NCBI GenBank assembly: GCA_016342715.1 | Contig: JAEINW010000004.1 | Coordinates: 1 to 60,744 of the forward strand | Direction: 5' to 3' | Length of the DNA stretch: 60,744 bases | Source: Salinivirgaceae bacterium | GTDB lineage: Bacteria; Bacteroidota; Bacteroidia; Bacteroidales; SZUA-534 | Part shown: positions 191-32,649 of the stretch, piece by piece | Position numbering within the stretch: the stretch's first letter is position 1 | Layout: each line of letters begins with the position of its first letter | Notes under the pieces: model-generated | Told to the model about the DNA's origin: nothing | Seen by the model: the letters and a program-made list of their open reading frames with translations, nothing else | The model's database searches: none | Position numbers and translations under genes: made by a program

Positions 191-1120
191 ATGAGCATAT
201 TTCAAGCGAAACAGGTTGATAAGATGTTTGCTAATCATCAGGCATTAAAGCAAGTAAGCATTGATGTTGACGAAGGCGAAATATTTGGATTATTGGGTCC
301 CAATGGAGCTGGTAAAACAACCTTAATAAGAATAATAAATCAAATTACAGCGCCCGATAATGGGGAGCTAGTTTTTAAAGGACGCCCCCTGCATAAAAAT
401 GATGTATATAATATTGGGTATTTGCCCGAGGAGCGAGGTTTATATAAAAAAATGAAAGTGGGCGAACAGGCAATATATTTAGCCCGTTTAAAAGGCTTAT
501 CGCGTTCTGAGGCTATTAAAAAACTAAAGTTTTGGTTCGACAAATTCGAAATAATCCCCTGGTGGGACAGAAAAGTTGAGGAACTTTCAAAAGGAATGCA
601 GCAAAAAATTCAATTTATAGTTACGATTCTTCACGATCCTACTCTTCTGATTTTTGATGAGCCATTCAGTGGCTTCGATCCAATTAATGCCAATTTATTA
701 AAGCAAGAGATTTTAACGCTCAAAAAAAACGGAGCTACCATTATTTTCTCCACTCATAATATGGGTTCGGTTGAAGAAATTTGCGACAGCATTGCTTTAA
801 TTAATAAGGCTGAAAAGATTTTAGATGGCAAGGTTGAAGACGTAAAGCAGCAATTCAAAACAAATATGTTTGAATGTAATTATGAGGGAGATTATGAAAA
901 AGTATCAAGCTTAGTTGAAAATAAACTTCAAATAATAGAGCACAAGCAGAATCATTCAATGCATTACTTGAAAGCAGAGTTTTCAGGAGATGAAACAAAT
1001 AACGATTTCCTAAACTTGTTAATTCCAAATGTGAAAATAGTCTCATTCAACGAGGTTGTTCCAACAATGGACGACATTTTCATTAAAGTAGTTGAGAAAA
1101 ATAATCTTGATGTAAACTAA
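191..1120 (+). CDS. ABC-2 type transporter ATP-binding subunit (NatA/YhaQ-like)
   Basis: Walker A GPNGAGKTT, signature LSKGMQQ, Walker B LIFDEP; upstream of an ABC permease. Confidence 0.92.
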   Translation: MSIFQAKQVDKMFANHQALKQVSIDVDEGEIFGLLGPNGAGKTTLIRIINQITAPDNGELVFKGRPLHKNDVYNIGYLPEERGLYKKMKVGEQAIYLARLKGLSRSEAIKKLKFWFDKFEIIPWWDRKVEELSKGMQQKIQFIVTILHDPTLLIFDEPFSGFDPINANLLKQEILTLKKNGATIIFSTHNMGSVEEICDSIALINKAEKILDGKVEDVKQQFKTNMFECNYEGDYEKVSSLVENKLQIIEHKQNHSMHYLKAEFSGDETNNDFLNLLIPNVKIVSFNEVVPTMDDIFIKVVEKNNLDVN

Positions 1121-4707: not shown

Positions 4708-4749
4708 AAAAAAAAGCCCTACGGTTTGGCGATTCCGAAAGGCTTTTTT
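4708..4749 (-). terminator. Probable bidirectional terminator downstream of saccharopine dehydrogenase
   Basis: A-tract/AGCC..CGG...CCG..GGCT/T-tract imperfect hairpin. Confidence 0.55.
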
Positions 4750-4844
4750 ATTTGGCAAGAGATATTTAAAAATTTAATTTTAAAATGCTAAGTCAATAAT
4801 AATTATTTTATTTTAAATACAAAAATAAAATATTGTGTTTTTTT

Positions 4845-6188
4845 TTAGTCAATATTTTCGCTAAGTGGCAAGCCGTATTCTTCAATCATTTCAATGCCCA
4901 TATTTTCAAGCTCATCCATAATTGGATTATAAATCTCGGGCAATACAGGAATGTGAACGCCTTTAATTTGAATTTCATGCTGAAGAATCATATTTACAGC
5001 ACAAGCTGCCGGTAAGGCAACTGTTCGTGCAATCGAAGTATCTTTTCCAGGAATTCCATAATCAAGTAAACGAGACTTAATTACCTCTTTTCTTCCGTCG
5101 GGGTACTCGGCCAAGAATATATGTTGCATTACACTCATGTCACGTTCCTTTTTATCATCCATCATCATCTTTTCGATCATTAAATCGGAAACAATCTCAT
5201 AGGTAGATTCTTTTTTACGGTTCATCAAATTTTCATCAAATAAGCCTAAGAATTCCATCGATTTAATGGCATCAGCATCAATGGCAATATTTAAATAATC
5301 AGCCACTTGTTTTTTTATGTTTTTGCTATCCTTTGCACCAATCATTTGAGCCATCATTTGCGCATAGGTCATTCCGGTAAAATCATGCGTATCCTGAATG
5401 GTTAATTTTAAGGTTTTTAATGCATCTAATGATTCACACCAACCTTTGAAACGGAAGGTTCCACGGAATATGGTATCTGTTTCTGGAATATCATATAAAT
5501 CGATATAAGGCAATGAGTCTCTGTTTGGATAAACATCTAATTCTTCAACGCCAGAAACTTTTAATCTAAAAGTATCTTTGAATAGATTTTCAGTTTTTAC
5601 TTCAACTTTATTTTTATGTTTCAGGTAACTGGCACTATTATTTCCGGCCAATACCACTCCTTTTGGACTCCATGAAAATTTATATCTAAAGGGGTTATCT
5701 TTAGAGCTTTCAGGAGCTGGCAAAGCGCCACAAATACTGTAGAATTCTTTAATTTTTCCACCAAAACCATGAACCGTATCAATAATTCGTTTGGCCGACA
5801 TATGATCAATGCCTGGATCTAATCCGCACTCATTTAATATAATAATGTTTGCATCTTTTGCTTTTTGATCAAGCGCATACATTTCTGGTTTTACATATGA
5901 GGTGGTAACCATGTTCTTTTTGTGCTCAATACATTTTTCAGCCACCATTACATGAAATGCGTAGGGAAGTAAACTTACTGTTAAGTCGTGTTCTATTATG
6001 AATTCATCAAGTTTGTCAGCTTCATTGGCATCCCAAAAAACAACTTTTCCTTTAGGGTTATTAGCAAGTAGCTTTTCGGCTCTTTCCACTGTGTTTGATG
6101 CAATAGTTACATAAATTCCTTTATTAAGTAAGTATTGAATGATTGGTCCGGCAACCATACCTGATCCTAATATAAGTACCTTGTTCAT
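4845..6188 (-). CDS. Saccharopine dehydrogenase (L-glutamate-forming; Lys9/AASS SDH-like)
   Basis: Rossmann VLILGSGMV, NECGLDPGIDHM, YKFSWSP, RGTFRF, ARTVALPAA; start moved to the ATG of MNKVLIL. Confidence 0.88.
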   Translation of the reverse strand: MNKVLILGSGMVAGPIIQYLLNKGIYVTIASNTVERAEKLLANNPKGKVVFWDANEADKLDEFIIEHDLTVSLLPYAFHVMVAEKCIEHKKNMVTTSYVKPEMYALDQKAKDANIIILNECGLDPGIDHMSAKRIIDTVHGFGGKIKEFYSICGALPAPESSKDNPFRYKFSWSPKGVVLAGNNSASYLKHKNKVEVKTENLFKDTFRLKVSGVEELDVYPNRDSLPYIDLYDIPETDTIFRGTFRFKGWCESLDALKTLKLTIQDTHDFTGMTYAQMMAQMIGAKDSKNIKKQVADYLNIAIDADAIKSMEFLGLFDENLMNRKKESTYEIVSDLMIEKMMMDDKKERDMSVMQHIFLAEYPDGRKEVIKSRLLDYGIPGKDTSIARTVALPAACAVNMILQHEIQIKGVHIPVLPEIYNPIMDELENMGIEMIEEYGLPLSENID

Positions 6189-6461
6189 AGCATTCGTATT
6201 TAAGGTTATGTTTTGTATAAAATAGTAGTTAAAAAGTTTAGCTAAATTATAAATCTCATATAATTGACAAATTAATCGGCCTTTCATTTATTATGTTGTT
6301 GAACACTGCTAAATATCTGTGTTTTATAATGTTTAAAACGCTTGATTTTCTTAAAAAAATAGACATATAAAAAGGAAAATAATTATTTTAACTGCATTTT
6401 TGCAAAAATTGGTATTGCTTTTGTTAATTTCGCCAAATATTATCATTCAATTTTTAAACTA

Positions 6462-7640
6462 TTGGAAACAAATAACGAAACGTACAGGTTGGTTGCTAAA
6501 ACCATGGCAGGCTTAGAAGAGGTTTTAGCTGAAGAGCTGGAGCAAATAGGGGCGAAAAATATTGAAAAACAGGTGAGAGCTGTTATTTTCGATGGGGATA
6601 AGGCAATGATGTATCGAGCCAATTATCATCTTAGAACTTCAATAAGTGTATTAAAACCAATTTATGAATTTATTGCTAATAACGAAGATGAGCTTTACAA
6701 GCATGTAGGGAAAGTAAATTGGAGTAAATATATGACTGTTGACGAAACACTTGCTATATCTGCAGCAACTTCAGGAGAAATATTTACACATTCAAAATAC
6801 ATCTCCCAAAAAGTTAAGGATGCGATAGTTGATCAATTTAGAAGAAGGCAAGATAAAAGACCTGATGTAAATACATTAAGCCCCGATTTAAAAATTAACA
6901 TTCACATACATAATAATAAGTGTTCTTTATTATTAGATAGTTCGGGGGATCCTTTGTTTAAAAGAGGCTATCGTATTAAAGCCACAAAAGCACCAGTAAA
7001 TGAGGTTTTAGCCGCAGGAATGATAAAGCTTTCGGGGTGGAATATGGATTGTGATTTTTACGATCCCATGTGTGGTTCAGGAACCCTTTTAATTGAAGCC
7101 GCTTTAATGGCTTATGGAATTGCTCCTGGAACTTATCGCAAAAAATTTGGCTTTGAATCGTGGAATGATTTTGATGCGGATTTATTCGAAGAAATAACAG
7201 AAGAAACCTACGGAAATACAGAATTTGCACATAATATATATGGGAGCGATTTGTCACCTTTAGCAGTTAAAATTGCTGAAGAAAACATTGGACAAGCTTT
7301 TTTAAGAAAAAAAATATCAGTAACACCAGCCAATTTTTTCGATATTCAACCCAAAGGTAAAGGTGGATTTATGGTAACAAACCCACCGTATGGGGAGCGT
7401 TTACAACCCGATGATTTGAAAATGTTCTATCAAAAAATTGGCGATAAATTAAAAATTGATTTTACAGGTTTTACCTCATGGATAATTGGTAGTAATGCCG
7501 AGGTGATGAAATTTATTGGCTTGAAACCTGAGCGTAAAATCAAACTTTACAATGGTTCTTTAGAATGTACCTTCAGAAAGTTTTCAGTATATGAAGGGAG
7601 CAAAAGAAATGGCGAAGAACCTAATGACGAGAACTTATAA
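6462..7640 (+). CDS. rlmL: THUMP-domain rRNA methyltransferase, RlmL-like (23S m2G2445)
   Basis: THUMP region, LFKRGYR, DPMCGSGT, TNPPYGER; TTG start. Confidence 0.8.
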   Translation: METNNETYRLVAKTMAGLEEVLAEELEQIGAKNIEKQVRAVIFDGDKAMMYRANYHLRTSISVLKPIYEFIANNEDELYKHVGKVNWSKYMTVDETLAISAATSGEIFTHSKYISQKVKDAIVDQFRRRQDKRPDVNTLSPDLKINIHIHNNKCSLLLDSSGDPLFKRGYRIKATKAPVNEVLAAGMIKLSGWNMDCDFYDPMCGSGTLLIEAALMAYGIAPGTYRKKFGFESWNDFDADLFEEITEETYGNTEFAHNIYGSDLSPLAVKIAEENIGQAFLRKKISVTPANFFDIQPKGKGGFMVTNPPYGERLQPDDLKMFYQKIGDKLKIDFTGFTSWIIGSNAEVMKFIGLKPERKIKLYNGSLECTFRKFSVYEGSKRNGEEPNDENL

Positions 7641-24260: not shown

Positions 24261-24668
24261 TAAGGAAGCTTTTGTAATTCTTTATTTTTACAAGTAACCC
24301 AATACCTATTAATTAAATAGATTTACTATAATAACATGAAGTTGATTGAATTATTTCTTTCAATGGATACTGGAATAAATAATAGATTATTAATACAAAT
24401 CAAGGGTTGAAATTATTTGTTTTTCAGGCTGTAAGCCTAATTAAGTTCAGCCCACATTATTAATTAAATAGTATATATAACGTTTAGCAAGAATATTATT
24501 AAAATGGGTACATGCGTATTAAAATTGTGCTACATTTGTATCCATTAAAAAACCTAAAAATGTTCGATTTAAAACGATTATTGATCTGCTTATATATTTT
24601 CTCTGAGCTATAAGAATATTTTGATATTTATTTATTATCAAAGTATTAATCAATAGTTATTTTATTCA

Positions 24669-25268
24669 ATGTTCGAAAAAATCTGTAAGGTTCAGGCTTT
24701 ATATAATGAGCTTGAAATTCAAATTAAAGCATTCCAGAAACAAATTAATTTACCATGTTTGAGTAATTGTAATAAGTGTTGTTTGAAACCAAATATTGAA
24801 GCATCAGTATTGGAATTTTTACCCTTAGCATATCACATTTATATCAACAATCAAATAGATGAGTTTTTAGATAAATTAAATTCAAGTATTACTATGTGTG
24901 TTCTGTTGAACTCTATAAGAATAATTGATTCACCTACAAATAGTGGATGTAAAAATTATGCACATCGGGGATTAATTTGTAGGTTATTTAGTTCGTCAGC
25001 AATTAGAGTGAAAGATAATTCATATGCAGTTTATACTTGTAAGGATATTAAAATCCAAGATCCAGAAAAATTCAGTTTGGCGATTCGCAATTTAAATGAA
25101 AACATAAATGCTCCTATAGCTGAAGAATGGGTTAGTAAATTATTAGAAATTGATGATACTATGGGAGGTGATTACAATCCCATTAATAAGAGTATCGAAA
25201 AAGCAATTATGAAAGTGGCTTATTGTTTTGACAACCAACCTCAAAATTTCAAATATCATGCAGTTTAA
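24669..25268 (+). CDS. YkgJ-family cysteine-cluster protein
   Basis: CLSNCNKCC, C..L, CKNYAHRGLICRLF. Confidence 0.8.
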   Translation: MFEKICKVQALYNELEIQIKAFQKQINLPCLSNCNKCCLKPNIEASVLEFLPLAYHIYINNQIDEFLDKLNSSITMCVLLNSIRIIDSPTNSGCKNYAHRGLICRLFSSSAIRVKDNSYAVYTCKDIKIQDPEKFSLAIRNLNENINAPIAEEWVSKLLEIDDTMGGDYNPINKSIEKAIMKVAYCFDNQPQNFKYHAV

Positions 25269-25363
25269 TTCTAATGTTATATTAAAATACGTTATAATTA
25301 CTATTAAACATTTTCTCCAAGCTAATTTTATTTGAAAAAAAATATGCAAAATAAATAATATGT

Positions 25364-25371
25364 TACCTTTG
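25364..25371 (+). promoter_or_regulatory. -7 promoter box of the bio operon leader
   Basis: TACCTTTG matches the TAnnTTTG consensus and ends 8 nt before ATG 25380. Confidence 0.65.
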
Positions 25372-25379
25372 CAATCTTA

Positions 25380-25739
25380 ATGCAGCAAAAAAATTACATA
25401 TCAAAAAAATCATTGACTTTCTCCAAATGGAGTAGGAAAGGCTATGCTGTATTTGCTTCTTTGGGAAAAGTGGTGAAAATAGGGCAGCTTAATGTTGAAA
25501 TTTGCAAACAAGCCATTAAGAAAAACACCAATTTATTAATTGAGTTTGTTTTATTAGAAAAAGATAAATTGAATCAAAAAACCGATGAATCCATCGAATT
25601 TTTATTGTCTGAATACTTATTTCAAAACGTAATTTCTATTAAGGCCATCGATTCAAAATTGAATCCACAAGAAAACAAGAAAATAAAAGTATATAATCAA
25701 AATCCATTCCGAACATTCGGGATGGATTTTTTAATTTAA
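25380..25739 (+). CDS. Putative leader/regulatory peptide of the biotin operon (KWSRKGYAVFASLGK motif)
   Basis: 119-codon ORF between the promoter box and bioB; ordered N-terminal motif, low-complexity C-terminal part. Confidence 0.7.
   Translation: MQQKNYISKKSLTFSKWSRKGYAVFASLGKVVKIGQLNVEICKQAIKKNTNLLIEFVLLEKDKLNQKTDESIEFLLSEYLFQNVISIKAIDSKLNPQENKKIKVYNQNPFRTFGMDFLI
25699..25732 (+). terminator. Intrinsic terminator/attenuator inside the 3' end of the leader ORF
   Basis: AAAATCCATTCCGAA-ca-TTCGGGATGGATTTT (one G-U pair) ending in six T. Confidence 0.75.
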
Positions 25740-25843
25740 TACATCATGATAAACAGACAATGTCTGAGATAATTATTGAGAGACAGCATTAACATTTATT
25801 AAAAATGCGTACCATATCAAAGACGGTCAAAAAATTTAAAAAG

Positions 25844-26818
25844 ATGGAGAAAATAACTGATTTTAAGAACAAAGTGCTGAATGGATATCAGTTAACTTAC
25901 GATGAAGGCGTGGAACTTACAAAAGTTGAAAACAAAGAAGACTTATATATAGCTGCTAACGAAATTCGTGCACATTTTTGTGGTGATAAAATAGATCTTT
26001 GTTCCATTACAAATGCAAAGTCGGGTAAATGTTCTGAAAATTGCAAATGGTGTAGCCAATCGGTTTATCATAAAACCAATATAGAAGAATACGAAGTGGT
26101 TGACCGTGAATCGACGATTAAAGAAGCGGTTGAAAACTATAAAAAAGGAGTGAGTCGTCATTCATTGGTTACCAGCGGGCGTGGTGTAAATGATAAAACT
26201 CTGGATCAGTTGATTCCAATTTATAAAGAGATTAAAGAAAAGAGTGATATAAGTTTATGTGCTTCGATGGGACTGATTGATAAGGCTCAGTTAAAAAGAT
26301 TGCGGGATGAAGTAGGAATTGAACATTACCATTGCAATCTGGAAACAGCTCCATCATTTTTCCCTCAATTAGTTACAACACATACTCAGGAAGAGAAAAT
26401 GATTACCATAAAGGCTGCAAAAGAATTGGGAATTAAAATTTGTTCGGGAGGAATCATTGGAATGGGCGAGGAAATGCATCATAGAGTGGAACTGGCTTGC
26501 TCTTTACGTGATTTAGAAGTGCTATCAATTCCAATTAATATTTTAACTCCAATAGAAGGAACTCCTTTGGAAAATGCGAAACCGCTTTCTGAAGAAGAAA
26601 TTTTAACATCTATTGCTGTGTTTAGGTTTATCAATCCAAAAGCTAATTTGCGTTTTGCAGGTGGACGATTAAAAATTAAACACTTTCAAGATAAAGCTTT
26701 ACATGCTGGAATTAGTGCCGCACTAACCGGTGATTATTTAACAACAACAGGTTCAAATATTGAGGAAGATATTCGTGGTTTTAAAAATGCGGGTTTCAAG
26801 ATTACTACTGAATTATGA
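25844..26818 (+). CDS. bioB: Biotin synthase (alternative in-frame start at 25805)
   Basis: Radical SAM CSENCKWCSQS, YHCNLET, CSGGIIGMGE, GDYLTT. Confidence 0.95.
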   Translation: MEKITDFKNKVLNGYQLTYDEGVELTKVENKEDLYIAANEIRAHFCGDKIDLCSITNAKSGKCSENCKWCSQSVYHKTNIEEYEVVDRESTIKEAVENYKKGVSRHSLVTSGRGVNDKTLDQLIPIYKEIKEKSDISLCASMGLIDKAQLKRLRDEVGIEHYHCNLETAPSFFPQLVTTHTQEEKMITIKAAKELGIKICSGGIIGMGEEMHHRVELACSLRDLEVLSIPINILTPIEGTPLENAKPLSEEEILTSIAVFRFINPKANLRFAGGRLKIKHFQDKALHAGISAALTGDYLTTTGSNIEEDIRGFKNAGFKITTEL

Positions 26819-26911: not shown

Positions 26912-28195
26912 ATGACGACCGATGAACTCATAGCATACGACAAGAAACACATCTGGCATCCGTATACATCAGCTACGAAACCCTTACCATGTTACCCGGT
27001 TAAGAAAGCCAATGGTGTTTATTTGGAGTTTGAAGATGGCACCAAAGTTATTGATGGAATGTCAAGCTGGTGGGCTGTAATTCACGGCTACAATCATCCA
27101 GTGTTGAATAAAGCCATGAAAGGCCAGATTGATAACATGTCGCATGTGATGTTTGGCGGATTAACCCATCGTCCCGCAGTTGAATTGGCTCAAAACTTAT
27201 TGAGAATTGTGCCCAAAGGTTTGGAACATATTTTTTATTCCGATTCGGGGTCGGTAGCTGTTGAAGTAGCCATGAAAATGGCGGTTCAATATTGGCATTC
27301 AAAAGGGTTAGCCGATAAATCAGGTTTTTTAACTATACGAAATGGTTATCATGGCGATACATGGAATGCCATGTCGGTTTGCGATCCGCTAACCGGAATG
27401 CATCAAATATTTGAAAAGAATTTACCCAAACAGTATTTTGTTCCAACACCAAGTTCTGATTTTTATGGGGAATTTGATGCATTGGATATTGAACCAATAA
27501 TTAATTTGCTTGAAAAGGAGCATAAAAATATTGCAGCATTTATCTTGGAACCCATAGTTCAGGGAGCGGGAGGAATGCGATTTTATCATCCTCAATTTTT
27601 AAAGGAGCTTCGCGAAATTTGTAATAAATTTGATGTGGTGTTTATTGCCGACGAAATAGCAACGGGGTTTGGACGTACTGGAAAACTTTTTGCTTGTGAA
27701 TATGCGGGAATATTACCAGATATAATGTGTTTAGGCAAAGCGATAACAGGAGGCTATATGAGTTTTGCAGCTACATTAGCAACAAAGGATGTGGCTGAAG
27801 GAATCTGCAATGGAAATCAGGGAGTGTTTATGCACGGTCCAACATTTATGGGAAATCCATTGGCTTGTGCCGTTGCAAATGCTAGTATTAAATTATTATT
27901 GGAAAGTAATTGGCAGGAAAATATTCAGCGCATTGAAGACCACCTAAAAAAAGAATTGCAAGAACTTAAAAATCATAAATCGGTAAAAGATATTAGAGTT
28001 TTAGGAGCTATTGGCGTGGTTGAAATGAAAGAAGCGGTTCAAATGGAGAAAATTCAAAAAGCATTTATCAATGAAGGTATTTGGTTACGTCCATTTGGAA
28101 AATTGGTTTACACCATGCCGCCATTTACCATTAGTAATGAGGAATTGCGAAAGTTAACCGATGGAATGAAGAAAGTTTTATTGAGTATTCAGTAG
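26912..28195 (+). CDS. bioA: DAPA aminotransferase
   Basis: [55 protein letters not shown]. Confidence 0.96.
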
Positions 28196-28304
28196 GCAGT
28201 CTTCAGTCCACAGTTATTTTTACTGAATACAGAATACTGAATACAGAATACTGAATACAGAATACTGAATACAGAATACTGAATACAGAATACTGAAGAC
28301 TGAA
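28184..28304. repeat. Heptamer tandem array (TACTGAA/TACAGAA x11 + GACTGAA) preceded by inverted heptamers
   Basis: 12 heptamers at 28221-28304; AGTATTC AGTAGGC AGTCTTC AGTCCAC at 28184-28211 in inverse orientation. Confidence 0.95.
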
Positions 28305-28305
28305 C

Positions 28306-29427
28306 ATGAAACATAAAAAATACACAAGAGAGTTAATTCTACTTGAGGAATCTGGAAACTTTCGTAAATTCCCAGAACAAGCTTCTGATTCGATGATTGA
28401 TTTGTCGAGCAACGATTATTTGGGCTTAATGCAGAATGCTTCTTTGCAGAATGAATTTATGCAAAGTGTGGATTTATCAAAGCTAAAATTCACTGCCTCA
28501 TCCTCACGTTTGCTTTCTGGAAATTCTAATGAATACACTCAATTGGAGAACTTGATTGCCTCGCAATATCAAAGAGACGCTTGCTTAGTATTTAATAGTG
28601 GTTATCATGCAAATACCGGAATAATTCCGGCTCTGGCTCAAAAGAATGATTTAATTATTGCGGATAAATTGGTTCATGCAAGTATTATTGATGGCATGCA
28701 ATTGAGCAAAGCTGATTTTTTGCGCTACAATCATTTGGATTACGATCATTTAGAATTGCTTCTTGAAAAAAAATCGAAACACTATGAGCATGTTTTTATC
28801 ATTAGCGAAAGTGTTTTTAGCATGGATGGCGACAAAGCAAATATTCAAAAGTTAGTTGAATTAAAAAATAAGTTTGGAGCATTTCTTTACATCGATGAAG
28901 CACATGCCGTAGGAGCTCTCGGAAAAAATGGTTTAGGATGTGTTGAGGAAGAAAACCTAATTCGGGAAGTTGATTTTATTATGGGAACATTTGGTAAAGC
29001 ATTGGCATCGGTTGGCGCTTATCTAGTATGTGATTCTATTTTTAAGCACTACCTAATTAATAAAGCACGAACCTTGATTTTTACAAGCGCATTGCCACCT
29101 ATTAATTTGGCATGGTCGCATTTTATTATGCAAAAACTTCCTGATTTTCATGAAAACCGAATTCAATTAAAAAAGTTGGGGCAGCAGTTTGCAGAACTAC
29201 TAAATGTTAAATCTGATAGTCATATTGTTCCATATATTATTGGAGAGAATAAGAATGCCATTCAAGCTTCGCAACTTTTAAAAGAAAATGGCTTTAACGT
29301 TTTGCCGATTCGTTACCCAACGGTTCCACAAGGAAGGGCAAGATTGCGATTTTCGTTAAATGCCTCTATGAAAATAGGACAGCTAGAGTTGATTGGAAAA
29401 GTATTAACAAGTAATTTAGCAATCTGA
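28306..29427 (+). CDS. bioF: 8-amino-7-oxononanoate synthase
   Basis: SSNDYLGL, SRLLSGN, HASIIDG, FSMDGD, DEAHAVG, GTFGKAL, IRYPTVP. Confidence 0.95.
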   Translation: MKHKKYTRELILLEESGNFRKFPEQASDSMIDLSSNDYLGLMQNASLQNEFMQSVDLSKLKFTASSSRLLSGNSNEYTQLENLIASQYQRDACLVFNSGYHANTGIIPALAQKNDLIIADKLVHASIIDGMQLSKADFLRYNHLDYDHLELLLEKKSKHYEHVFIISESVFSMDGDKANIQKLVELKNKFGAFLYIDEAHAVGALGKNGLGCVEEENLIREVDFIMGTFGKALASVGAYLVCDSIFKHYLINKARTLIFTSALPPINLAWSHFIMQKLPDFHENRIQLKKLGQQFAELLNVKSDSHIVPYIIGENKNAIQASQLLKENGFNVLPIRYPTVPQGRARLRFSLNASMKIGQLELIGKVLTSNLAI

Positions 29428-29524: not shown

Positions 29525-30181
29525 ATGAAAAAACTCTGGATAAATAAGGCAAATAACACAAAATGCATACTATTCTTTAATGGCTGGGGAATGGACGAAA
29601 AGGCTGTTTCTCATATGGAATTTTCTGATTTTGATATTTGTGTGTTTTTCGACTATTCAAACTTTGAATTAGAAATAAACGAATTCGATTCATATCAATC
29701 AGTATATATTGTCGCATGGTCGTTGGGAGTTTGGGTTGCAAGTCAGGTAATGAATAGTGCTAATTTGAATATTGAAAAAGCTATTGCTATTAATGGAACT
29801 GAATTAGCCATTAGTGATGAATATGGAATCCCGCCTAAGGTTCTTATAGGAACGTTGGATTGTTGGGATGAAATAAACCGCGATAAGTTTAATCAGCGGT
29901 TATTTGGTGGAATGATAAAGCTTGGAGAAGCATTTGATAGATTGTCAAACAGAACCATCGAAAACCAAAAGAAAGAACTTGCATATTTAATGAGTGAAAT
30001 TGAAGAAATTTCAGAAACAGACATCAAATGGGATATTGCTTTGATTGGAACCTTGGATTTAATTTTTAGTGCCAAAAATCAGAGTTCTTATTGGGGAATG
30101 AAAACAAAAATAATTGAAAAACCCATGCCACATTATCCCTTTGCCTATTTTACCAATTGGCAACAAATAATTGATTTGTAA
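29525..30181 (+). CDS. bioG: Pimeloyl-ACP methyl ester esterase BioG (DUF452)
   Basis: LFFNGWGMD, nucleophile AWSLG, INGT, PHYPF; lies between bioF and bioC. Confidence 0.85.
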   Translation: MKKLWINKANNTKCILFFNGWGMDEKAVSHMEFSDFDICVFFDYSNFELEINEFDSYQSVYIVAWSLGVWVASQVMNSANLNIEKAIAINGTELAISDEYGIPPKVLIGTLDCWDEINRDKFNQRLFGGMIKLGEAFDRLSNRTIENQKKELAYLMSEIEEISETDIKWDIALIGTLDLIFSAKNQSSYWGMKTKIIEKPMPHYPFAYFTNWQQIIDL

Positions 30182-30949
30182 ATGATAATAGCTGATAAAA
30201 AAATTATAAAAGAAAGGTTTAACCGAAATTTTGCATCCTATCAGTGTGGAGCAATTGTGCAAAAAAAAGTGGTTGAACGTTTTTGCCAGATTCTGCACGA
30301 GCTAAAACTTTCTAATTTTTCAAAAGTGCTAGAAATTGGATGTGGAACTGGATTTTTAAGCAAGGAGTTTTTAAAAAAAGAAAACCCACATCAATATTTT
30401 TTAAACGATTTGAATACTGAAATATTTCAAGGAATTAAGAACACCCTTAATTCAAAGCTCCTTCTAAATTATCAGTATTTATCGGGTGATGCTGAATTAA
30501 TTGATTTTCCTGACGATTTAGATGCTCTAATTTCAACATCTACCATTCAATGGTTTCATAAGCTCGAAAATTTTATTCGTAAAGTTAATTATCATTTAGT
30601 TGAAAACGGAATATTTGCATTTAGTACATTCGGCCAACAAAATTTTATTGAAATTAAAGAAACATTAAAATTGGGCTTAGATTATTATTCAAAAACAGAA
30701 CTTGTGGAAATGTTAAGCGAGAAATTTGACATATTACATTTTGAAGAATGGAAAGAAGCCATGCTTTTTGAAAACCCAAGAGAAGTATTACGTCATATTA
30801 AAACCACAGGAGTTAATGGAATTTCGAATTATTATTGGAGCAAAACAAAATTATTGCAATTTGAGGAGTCTTACATCAATCAGTTTAAAGCGGAAGATAA
30901 AGTGAGGCTTACTTATCATCCGATAATTATTATTGCAAGGAAAAAGTAA
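30182..30949 (+). CDS. bioC: Malonyl-ACP O-methyltransferase
   Basis: LEIGCGTG, GDAE, QWF, FSTFG, TGVN, LTYHP. Confidence 0.92.
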   Translation: MIIADKKIIKERFNRNFASYQCGAIVQKKVVERFCQILHELKLSNFSKVLEIGCGTGFLSKEFLKKENPHQYFLNDLNTEIFQGIKNTLNSKLLLNYQYLSGDAELIDFPDDLDALISTSTIQWFHKLENFIRKVNYHLVENGIFAFSTFGQQNFIEIKETLKLGLDYYSKTELVEMLSEKFDILHFEEWKEAMLFENPREVLRHIKTTGVNGISNYYWSKTKLLQFEESYINQFKAEDKVRLTYHPIIIIARKK

Positions 30950-31272
30950 ATGATAACAAGATGCTTAGCGATTATTTTAACAATACGAATCAAATCGGGA
31001 TTATTTCAGAGTGTTTTGTTTTGAAATCGCTTAGCATCTATTCTAAACTATTATGAATAATATAATCATGGCATAGTTCGCAAAAGAGAAAAATGCAAAA
31101 GGCGCAAAGAACAAAATTCAAGGATTAAAATCTTTGCGTCTTTTTCGGTTCCCTTAGCGCTTTTTGCGTGGTGTTTTTTTTAATGTTAACGAGATGCTTT
31201 GCGAATGTATTTGTAAAAAGATTTCGTAATTATGCTAATTAGCTATTCGTTTAGCATCTATTTTAAATATCT
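30950..31272. repeat. Two related hairpin units flanking a CGCAAAG-type inverted repeat
   Basis: AGATGCTTAGCGATT/AATCGCTTAGCATCT (30959-31039) and AGATGCTTTGCGAAT/ATTCGTTTAGCATCT (31192-31259); CGCAAAAG..CGCAAAGA / TCTTTGCG..TTTTGCG between them. Confidence 0.75.
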
Positions 31273-31926
31273 ATGAAAAACAAAACATACTTTATAAGCG
31301 GAATTGATACCGATTGTGGTAAAACTTATATCACTGGGAATTTAGCAAAGCTTTTGCAAAGTCATGGCAAAAAAGTGATTACACACAAATTAATTCAAAC
31401 AGGCTGCGCAGGAATCTCTGAAGATGTTTTGGAACATAGAAGGATTATGGGTGTCGATTTATTCCCTGAAGACAAAAGTGGAATTACCTGTCCGTATGTG
31501 TTGTCTTTTCCAGCTTCTCCGCATTTAGCTTGCGAAATTGATAAGCTTGAATTAGATTTTGATAGTATTAAATCATCAATCTCAGCGCTAGCTTCAAAAT
31601 ACGAAATTGTACTTTGCGAAGGTGCCGGAGGTTTAATGGTTCCGCTAAAAAAAGATTATTTAACTATTGATTTTATTAAAGAAAACAACTATCCAGTTAT
31701 ATTAGTTAGCTCTTCAAAATTGGGAAGTATCAATCACACAATTTTAAGTTTGCAAGCATGTAAAAGTTATGGAATTGATTTAAAATATGTTATTTATAAT
31801 GAGTTCCCAGACCAGAATAAATTAATTTCAGAGGATTCATATAAATATTTAAAATCGTATGTGCAAAGCAATTTTACAAATGTAGAATTCTTTAGAAATG
31901 AAAATTTAGATCAAATAAAACTATGA
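31273..31926 (+). CDS. bioD: Dethiobiotin synthase
   Basis: SGIDTDCGKT, KLIQTG, ASPHLA, EGAGGLMVP, LGSINHT. Confidence 0.95.
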   Translation: MKNKTYFISGIDTDCGKTYITGNLAKLLQSHGKKVITHKLIQTGCAGISEDVLEHRRIMGVDLFPEDKSGITCPYVLSFPASPHLACEIDKLELDFDSIKSSISALASKYEIVLCEGAGGLMVPLKKDYLTIDFIKENNYPVILVSSSKLGSINHTILSLQACKSYGIDLKYVIYNEFPDQNKLISEDSYKYLKSYVQSNFTNVEFFRNENLDQIKL

Positions 31927-31968: not shown

Positions 31969-32649
31969 ATGCAAGAAATTCTGGAACAAATAAAGGAATC
32001 TTTTAATGATGAAATTTTATCTCGATCGGAGAAACGAAATTTAAAAGAAATAATTAGTAGCAATAAACTTTCAAAGAGTGATTTAGATTGGTTGCGGAAT
32101 GGAGTGTTTTTATTTGCAAGAGAGAAATCAACAAGTGTTGAAGGTGAAAAAATTATTAATTGGCTAGAGAAAGCAAACAAACTGCTTCTGCCAAAAATAG
32201 ATGATCATCCAGAAAAAAGAGTTTTTTTTAGTCCTGGTGATGAATGTTTGCTGGCAATTATCGATCATTTAAACAAAGCTGTTTCAAACATTGATATTTG
32301 TGTTTTTACCATTAGCGATAATCGGCTTTCCGATAAAATAATTGAAGCTCACCGCAGAGGAGTTAGAATAAGAATAATTACTGATGACGATAAATCAAAT
32401 GATAGGGGCTCTGATATCCACAAAATGGCTGAATTAGGAATTGATATAAAAATGGACAATTCATCCTATCATATGCATCATAAATTTGCCATTTTTGACA
32501 AGGTAGATGTAATTACCGGTAGTTTTAATTGGACTCGCAGTGCTGCAGAATATAACCAAGAGAATATATTAGTTAGTTCAGATAAACATGTAATTTCCGC
32601 TTATGTAAATAAGTTTGAATCACTTTGGCAATTAATGAAAATCTATTAA
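31969..32649 (+). CDS. Single-HKD phospholipase D-family nuclease (Nuc/Zucchini-like)
   Basis: FFSPG, HHKFAIFD (HxKxxxxD), TGSFNWT...NQEN. Confidence 0.85.
   Translation: MQEILEQIKESFNDEILSRSEKRNLKEIISSNKLSKSDLDWLRNGVFLFAREKSTSVEGEKIINWLEKANKLLLPKIDDHPEKRVFFSPGDECLLAIIDHLNKAVSNIDICVFTISDNRLSDKIIEAHRRGVRIRIITDDDKSNDRGSDIHKMAELGIDIKMDNSSYHMHHKFAIFDKVDVITGSFNWTRSAAEYNQENILVSSDKHVISAYVNKFESLWQLMKIY

Follow-up and report, generated by a model that had tools for sequence, protein, structure and literature searches.

A conserved peptide motif in leader ORFs and protein N-termini of the Bacteroidales biotin regulon, and its probable role in translation-dependent attenuation

We have asked how the biotin operon is controlled that lies in the stretch of DNA analysed here (the window: 60,744 nucleotides from a Salinivirgaceae bacterium). 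Our literature search turned up no biotin regulator for Bacteroidales, no transcription-factor gene adjoins the operon in the neighbourhood that we examined, and the only BirA-type ligase of this genome (245 residues, with its ligase domain beginning at residue 9-11) has no N-terminal winged helix-turn-helix domain (wHTH), in agreement with the group I enzyme assumed in a preliminary description of the locus. That description read the region ahead of bioB as a leader-peptide attenuator. Its coordinates for the promoter box, the ATG, the 119-codon ORF, the hairpin and the bioB-A-F-G-C-D genes behind them are all correct, and its reading as a whole is partly supported; our alignments indicate, in addition, that the element is far wider than this one locus and that its information sits in an N-terminal peptide motif. 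The features are as follows.

25364..25371, forward strand: promoter box TACCTTTG (Bacteroidota -7 type), with an 8 nt gap to the ATG at 25380
25380..25739, forward strand: leader ORF of 119 amino acids, from the ORF list
25419..25490, forward strand: conserved peptide motif F14-L37, from profile and alignments; one copy in the genome
25521..25523, forward strand: Lys48, at the end of a predicted helix; kept in 40/47 leader-type members
25569..25598, forward strand: position of an acidic patch (40% D/E in the family, over 47 leaders; 3 of 10 residues here)
25699..25738, forward strand: intrinsic terminator-like hairpin (25699-25730) and U tract, within the last 13 codons of the leader
25844..26818, forward strand: bioB (Pfam/NCBIfam)
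26912..28195, forward strand: bioA (Pfam/NCBIfam)
28306..29427, forward strand: bioF (best match TIGR00858, under its cut-off)
29525..30181, forward strand: bioG (Pfam/NCBIfam)
30182..30949, forward strand: bioC (Pfam/NCBIfam)
31273..31926, forward strand: bioD (Pfam/NCBIfam)

We take boxes of the TACCTTTG type to be promoters by analogy, because the published primary start site of the Bacteroides thetaiotaomicron homologue BT_1442, the only one that the start-site file gives for this gene, lies 28 nt upstream of it and 5 nt past TACATTTG (PMC7366714, supplement file 3). At the window leader the start of transcription is predicted near 25376, which would give a 5' UTR of ~4 nt. The box at 25364 is the only TAnnTTTG in 25201-25900, and box-to-start gaps of 9 nt or less are found in 22 of 36 box-bearing leaders, against 85 of 1089 cases in the genome background. 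Near-leaderless initiation is not general, because only 1 of 30 leaders in a Parabacteroides-like genus (L172-L201) has a TAnnTTTG box of its own, and because in the annotated relative L034 (4328-5983) the leader lies 17 nt behind the gene of a peptide MFS transporter, which could serve at the inner membrane as a partner in the uptake of biotin or biocytin. The window holds a second TAnnTTTG box at 24531, upstream of a CxxCxxCC-family gene (box and gene, 24531-25268). The transcript of that gene may also reach the attenuator, because there is no strong terminator ahead of the leader. Downstream, the preliminary description had seen no box between the hairpin and bioB, and neither the strict nor the relaxed pattern finds one in 25691-25850; the interval between terminator and next gene is free of a TAnnTTTG box in 38/38 loci. 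The bioB frame is open from 25805, and we take the ATG at 25844 as its start from the starts of its homologues. The leader ORF itself has no match in Pfam, NCBIfam or PDB, an Atlas search with it gave only uninformative matches (all below 0.9; leader model pLDDT 0.37), a related-locus search with the single leader protein as query found no relative, and database names of its relatives, where present, read 'hypothetical protein'.

A trp- or his-style antiterminator would be the conventional way for such a leader to act, and the preliminary description proposed that a segment inside the ORF (AATCCATCGAA, 25588-25598, within the acidic patch position) pairs with the 3' arm of the terminator. This pairing is possible, as an 8-9 bp duplex at -12.1 kcal/mol, but 13 of 100 shuffles equal it, no more than chance; in the ensemble it has a probability of 3e-6, and blocking the 5' arm still leaves fewer than one of its pairs expected. 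Across homologues, an upstream duplex reaches p<=0.05 in only 3 of 38, with a median rank of 38.5 of 100. What dominates the fold is the terminator hairpin (14 pairs, -18 kcal/mol, T tract, mean pair probability 0.96 in the ensemble), which begins 38 nt ahead of the stop codon. A riboswitch or other structured RNA fares no better: codons vary freely, with no conserved nucleotides, and no Rfam family matches. Nor is a run of codons for one sensed amino acid conserved in the motif alignments. We therefore regard it as very improbable that the locus works by an alternative antiterminator, or by an RNA or DNA element (riboswitch, operator) inside the coding sequence, given these results and the nearly saturated third positions described below.

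What is conserved is a peptide. The motif, residues 14-37 of the leader, has the 24-residue consensus F-x-x-W-S/T-R-K-x-Y-A-x-F-x-S-L-x-K-x-V-x-I-x-x-L; its F1 and I21 never vary among 98 distinct members, and W4, R6, K7, F12, S14 and L24 hardly do. Over these 98 members (three loci with no core match were dropped from the codon statistics) pS is 0.82-0.86 and pN 0.31-0.34, third codon positions are near saturation, and switches between TCN and AGY for Ser and between CGN and AGR for Arg are present. The motif is neither an operator nor an RNA motif, because codons vary freely while residues are kept. Within one genus dN/dS is 0.12 for the motif, 0.08 for the next 16 codons and 0.35 for the tail, and 18 of 20 leader indels are multiples of 3, in a set of 23 of 378 pairs that are not independent; the tail is under weaker selection than the motif, yet its frame is kept. 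The motif starts 12-14 codons from the leader start in 46 of 47 leaders, a near-fixed spacing that is partly by construction, since the start was taken as the ATG nearest to 13 codons. AlphaFold models a 55-residue motif peptide as two low-confidence helices (pLDDT 68, pTM 0.34).

The motif is widespread, although the genomes are related and counts across them are not independent. Its profile matches 192 of 401 genomes of the order Bacteroidales (about half); for a single genus the count is 57 of 61, for another family 122 of 151, and residues 14-37 match 28 of 33 genomes of the window organism's family; at 50% identity there are 1760 matching clusters. It is found in 8/401 genomes of a phylum-wide sample and 11/301 of a class-wide one, nearly all Bacteroidales, and one Persicobacter record also carries it. 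It is not universal in Bacteroidales: of 41 genomes negative for it, 8 carry a BioB gene whose upstream region, taken over up to 1.5 kb, has no motif, and the receptor described below is present in 8, with no motif nearby apart from one weak remnant (L278).

The position of the terminator points to how the leader may work. We chose, for each of 98 distinct leaders, the strongest hairpin and U tract in the 520 nt past the motif, ignoring the position of the stop codon; five loci (short, open-ended or with no core match) and the fused forms were excluded. In 82 of the 98 the strongest terminator lies 272 to 374 nt from the motif's first residue (F+272..374), and in the other 16 no terminator was detected in that interval. 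Where it is in place, the stop codon comes at most 8 nt ahead of the hairpin in 82 of 82 loci and the frame overlaps the hairpin by more than 15 nt in 72; the two alternative frames are open to the hairpin in only 1 and 2 of the 82. At least 272 nt always separate the start of the motif from the U tract, ~60-85 poorly conserved codons intervene between motif and hairpin, 82 codons follow L37 in the window leader, and beyond the hairpin the length and sequence of the tail vary freely. Ordinary genes behave differently. A stricter detector finds a terminator behind 173 of the 2822 long ORFs in the window organism's genome, and none of the 173 begins more than 15 nt ahead of the end of the stop codon; 82 lie at the mode of +20 to +30, and 13% within 12 nt past the stop. 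The same detector puts the window leader's terminator at -36; it finds one in 19 of 47 leaders, and the overlap exceeds 15 nt in 15 of these. Stop-to-terminator spacing is a published proxy for coupled transcription and translation (PMC7858274, in the part available to us). Ordinary terminators avoid the ribosome footprint and the bio-leader terminator is kept under it. The translated leader overlapping an intrinsic terminator that the preliminary description saw at one locus is thus, on comparative evidence, kept before bio operons, and attenuation at these leaders very probably depends on translation.

Assembled RNA reads from a relative (L172, hairpin at ~1845-1887) give at most a weak hint on the same region; a repeat at ~1894-1944 fragments assemblies, and contig depth cannot rank genes. 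Of the contigs of study P1 (X1), one that stops at 1856 has a depth of 1095, against 3-9 for those on bioB. RNA contigs of study P8 (X20-22) end at 1757-1834 and none lies on bioB. Metatranscriptomes X2 and X8 break at the hairpin too, with equal depth on both sides, and X11 and X12 bridge it.

The motif occurs in four architectures. The first is the leader ORF. For it we drew on short-frame matches among the 150 matches listed (46 lie beyond these) together with extra loci from the family and phylum samples; among the loci so collected, 49 are short-ORF loci, 44 of which precede bio genes, 4 a receptor gene and 1 a contig end. In the second, the motif lies in the signal-peptide region of a BtuB-like TonB receptor of ~680 residues (50 loci). 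In the third it forms the N-terminus of BioB or of a BioB-BioA fusion, as in Bacteroides finegoldii and, as a BioB fusion, in BT_1442 of B. thetaiotaomicron, and in the fourth (L232-L243, L246, L247) it is joined with a signal peptide to an exported amidase of the Peptidase_C92 (YaeF/YiiX) family, encoded directly ahead of the receptor or fused to it. The amidase is possibly a biocytin or biotinyl-peptide hydrolase serving salvage. No intrinsic terminator is conserved in the fused forms at a leader-equivalent distance, so that control there would need translation arrest or Rho; their C>G skew is only mild.

Several loci combine or depart from these forms. In L110 a motif-bearing leader ORF (6787-7206) is followed by a motif-bearing receptor gene (4714-6762), with no terminator detected between them. 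One leader frame overruns its usual stop and reads in frame into BioB (L244:633-2042), and another is 464 codons long with the terminator within it (L199); these two long frames are either natural intermediates or assembly errors. Two leader-receptor loci of one family have a short-chain dehydrogenase gene behind the receptor (L144:4294-5052, L145:4380-5138).

One may ask whether the ORF could be a relic of a receptor signal peptide, or a small protein acting in trans, with a hairpin that merely dampens transcription constitutively. Leaders and receptor share the order of basic motif and acidic patch, and the annotation of P. distasonis lists the leader ORF as an ordinary hypothetical gene, both of which would suit such an origin. 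Against it stand the purifying selection, the frame-keeping indels, the free variation of the tail beyond the hairpin and the lack of a confident fold. In a weakly resolved tree, moreover, leader and receptor forms are largely separate (4 label changes versus 34 when shuffled), and repeated recent decay from the receptor is disfavoured because the two group largely apart. We consider this account improbable.

If the leaders are attenuators, to what do they respond? BioB scores above its cut-off in only 3 of 64 receptor-type genomes, and the receptor is likely to be the biotin importer of auxotrophs because BioB is so rarely present; import of biotin by a BtuB-like protein is likely on these gene-content grounds. 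Conversely, the receptor is present in only 9 of 46 bio-leader genomes (scoring the best 25 or fewer candidates per genome), and 6 of these 9 receptors lack the motif. In two loci (L142:8554-10623, L143:8329-10392) a motif-bearing receptor gene heads a complete bioBAFGCD operon. The geometry alone indicates just translation-dependent read-through, and since BioB and BioC consume SAM, one might suppose a genuine attenuator that reads not biotin but, for example, the general rate of translation or the status of SAM, Fe-S or fatty acids. The 61 of 64 receptor-type genomes without BioB have no SAM-costly pathway, and the need that these genomes share with the others is biotin; we think a different signal has little chance of being the right one.

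It seems to us somewhat better than an even proposition that the leader acts in cis as an attenuator whose terminator would be freed when, in response to biotin, the ribosome is held up on the nascent motif; the biotin response, the stalling, the coupling and the sensor are those parts of this proposal to which we reason from comparative data. Under biotin shortage the first ribosome would keep up with RNA polymerase along the leader and mask the 5' arm of the hairpin, allowing transcription of the bio genes. With plenty of biotin it would fall behind polymerase, by stalling or by dropping off, and the hairpin would fold and transcription would end. Occlusion by a coupled ribosome would need no alternative RNA structure. 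In the fused forms (receptor, BioB and amidase), hold-up would block synthesis of the protein itself and be polar on downstream genes. Hold-up must accompany biotin plenty, because the reverse would close synthesis and uptake just when they are needed, and a single polarity in which hold-up means off would fit all four architectures. We note that biotin genes of B. thetaiotaomicron change expression in vivo, for which the part of the report available to us gives no mechanism (10.1101/2022.02.23.481734).

A quite different way to read the same leaders is that the motif recruits a positive factor in cis under biotin shortage, of the antitermination or NusG type or as a helper of initiation or elongation. 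The terminator dominates the fold, and the default state would therefore be off, as this reading demands; Bacteroides antitermination is reported to use NusG paralogues (PMC11685472, in part). Such recruitment leaves unexplained that the frame is open up to the hairpin in 82/82 loci, and we saw no regulator gene beside motif genes in 20 receptor neighbourhoods read by eye. We judge it unlikely, and return to the biotin-responsive attenuator and to the nature of its sensor.

Free biotin is scarce in cells, and the genome holds what we take, by a biotin-acceptor pattern, to be three biotin-acceptor-like domains. A tentative possibility is that biotin-loaded group I BirA grips the motif once it has emerged from the exit tunnel and so arrests translation, which would terminate transcription of bio operons and silence the receptor and the C92 amidase. 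BCCP-like substrates of biotin ligases have an invariant acceptor Lys in an AMKM-type turn, and the lysines of the motif region (Lys20, and Lys48 in leaders) have no AMKM-type context and are not invariant: Lys20 is kept in 89 of 98 members and replaced in 9, and its biotinylation therefore cannot be required everywhere. How class I ligases sense biotin is described as an open question, and they have been proposed as sensors acting via a second component (PMC5640590, in part). The same attenuator could instead sense biotin, dethiobiotin or another intermediate directly, the nascent motif binding it in the exit tunnel with no protein factor. This differs from our preferred model in the sensor only, so that its share of probability is contained in that of the biotin-responsive attenuator, and we hold it to be doubtful, and rather less likely than BirA. 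It would suit a core of 24 residues, set at a nearly constant distance from the start, with invariant aromatic and aliphatic residues, a motif that works inside signal peptides and the helix predicted within it (pLDDT 68). It sits less well with the ~60-85 weakly conserved codons before the hairpin, given that TnaC and SpeFL arrest at the stop codon, and with the high ligand concentrations that sensors of this type require (10.1101/2021.03.31.437805, in part). The acidic patch lies 50-60 codons past the motif's F and would be passing through the peptidyl-transferase centre when the motif leaves the tunnel, which fits binding of a factor to the emerged motif. Thus a factor acting on the emerged motif is favoured because of the spacer of at least 272 nt, the place of the acidic patch and the high ligand need of TnaC and SpeFL, set against the scarcity of free biotin.

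How does such an element compare with known systems? In E. coli pyrBI and pyrE, a leader ORF enters an intrinsic terminator and a coupled ribosome blocks the hairpin with no antiterminator; the signal is UTP-dependent pausing of polymerase, and the peptide sequence is irrelevant. The bio leader is alike in that its frame reaches or overlaps the 5' arm of the terminator wherever one is in place, but differs in that its peptide motif is under strong selection and portable to protein N-termini. The trp, his and Bacteroid-trp systems also have a translated leader and an intrinsic terminator ahead of a biosynthetic operon, as does the bio leader, whose translation is inferred from codon-level selection. 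Unlike trp and his, the bio leader has neither a regulatory codon run nor a conserved antiterminator, the product is not an amino acid, and stalling would terminate transcription rather than allow read-through. The MTO1 region of Arabidopsis CGS1 and the repressive uORFs of plants and fungi show end-product-dependent nascent-peptide arrest that is repressive, eukaryotic and involves no transcription terminator. CGS1 MTO1 acts within the N-terminus of its own enzyme, like the BioB and receptor fusions, and we found no sequence relation of the bio motif to it or to repressive uORFs. The Neurospora arginine attenuator peptide is a named arrest peptide, and TnaC and SpeFL, of 24-34 residues, arrest during termination, block Rho and switch on catabolic genes (10.1101/2021.03.31.437805, in the part available). 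Like these two, the bio leader is conserved at the level of peptide and not of nucleotide, and is tied to transcription of a metabolic operon. It differs from them in its length (~90-155 residues), its intrinsic terminator, the repression that it would exert and its vitamin cofactor; its conserved residues end far before the stop, and its fused frames run into the receptor or BioB. We infer that it works like an occlusion attenuator of the pyrBI type driven by a TnaC-like peptide, yet it departs from each in a defining feature, as it does from trp/his attenuators and riboswitches.

Among biotin regulators, class II BirA, BioR, BioQ and BioL are DNA-binding proteins that repress at operators (PMC5640590, PMC12915131). 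They likewise place synthesis and uptake genes under common control, whereas here BirA lacks a wHTH and the signal that is conserved is a peptide encoded in cis. The available parts of both texts make no mention of attenuation, nor that of PMC5640590 of a riboswitch. In a literature search whose scope left out subscription journals and large supplementary lists of uORFs, we found no account of the bio leader, the motif or the receptor. We conclude that this is a real and widespread cis-regulatory peptide of the Bacteroidales biotin regulon, apparently undescribed so far. If the proposed mechanism is true, a peptide would here do what a vitamin riboswitch does in RNA, and a vitamin cofactor would join the amino acids as something sensed through nascent peptides. 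The motif also serves as a marker of the regulon, and by it we predict a biotin importer in the outer membrane and an amidase for biotin salvage; these predictions bear on vitamin cross-feeding, and an engineered biotin-responsive switch is conceivable. Bacteroidales includes Bacteroides and Parabacteroides, the motif offers a testable mechanism in genetically tractable commensals, and gut communities dominated by Bacteroides are reported to be enriched in biotin synthesis genes (PMC12702654, in part).

Lastly, we note three features of the bio operon in the window apart from its leader. The spacer between bioA and bioF (28195-28306) contains about five tandem copies of a 14-nt unit with an inverted repeat on the flanks. 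That between bioC and bioD (30949-31273) is 324 nt long and holds a long imperfect palindrome, repeat-like in character (-77.8 kcal/mol for the region). Right after bioD, on the same strand, comes a gene for a PLD-like (NucT-related) protein (31969-32649).
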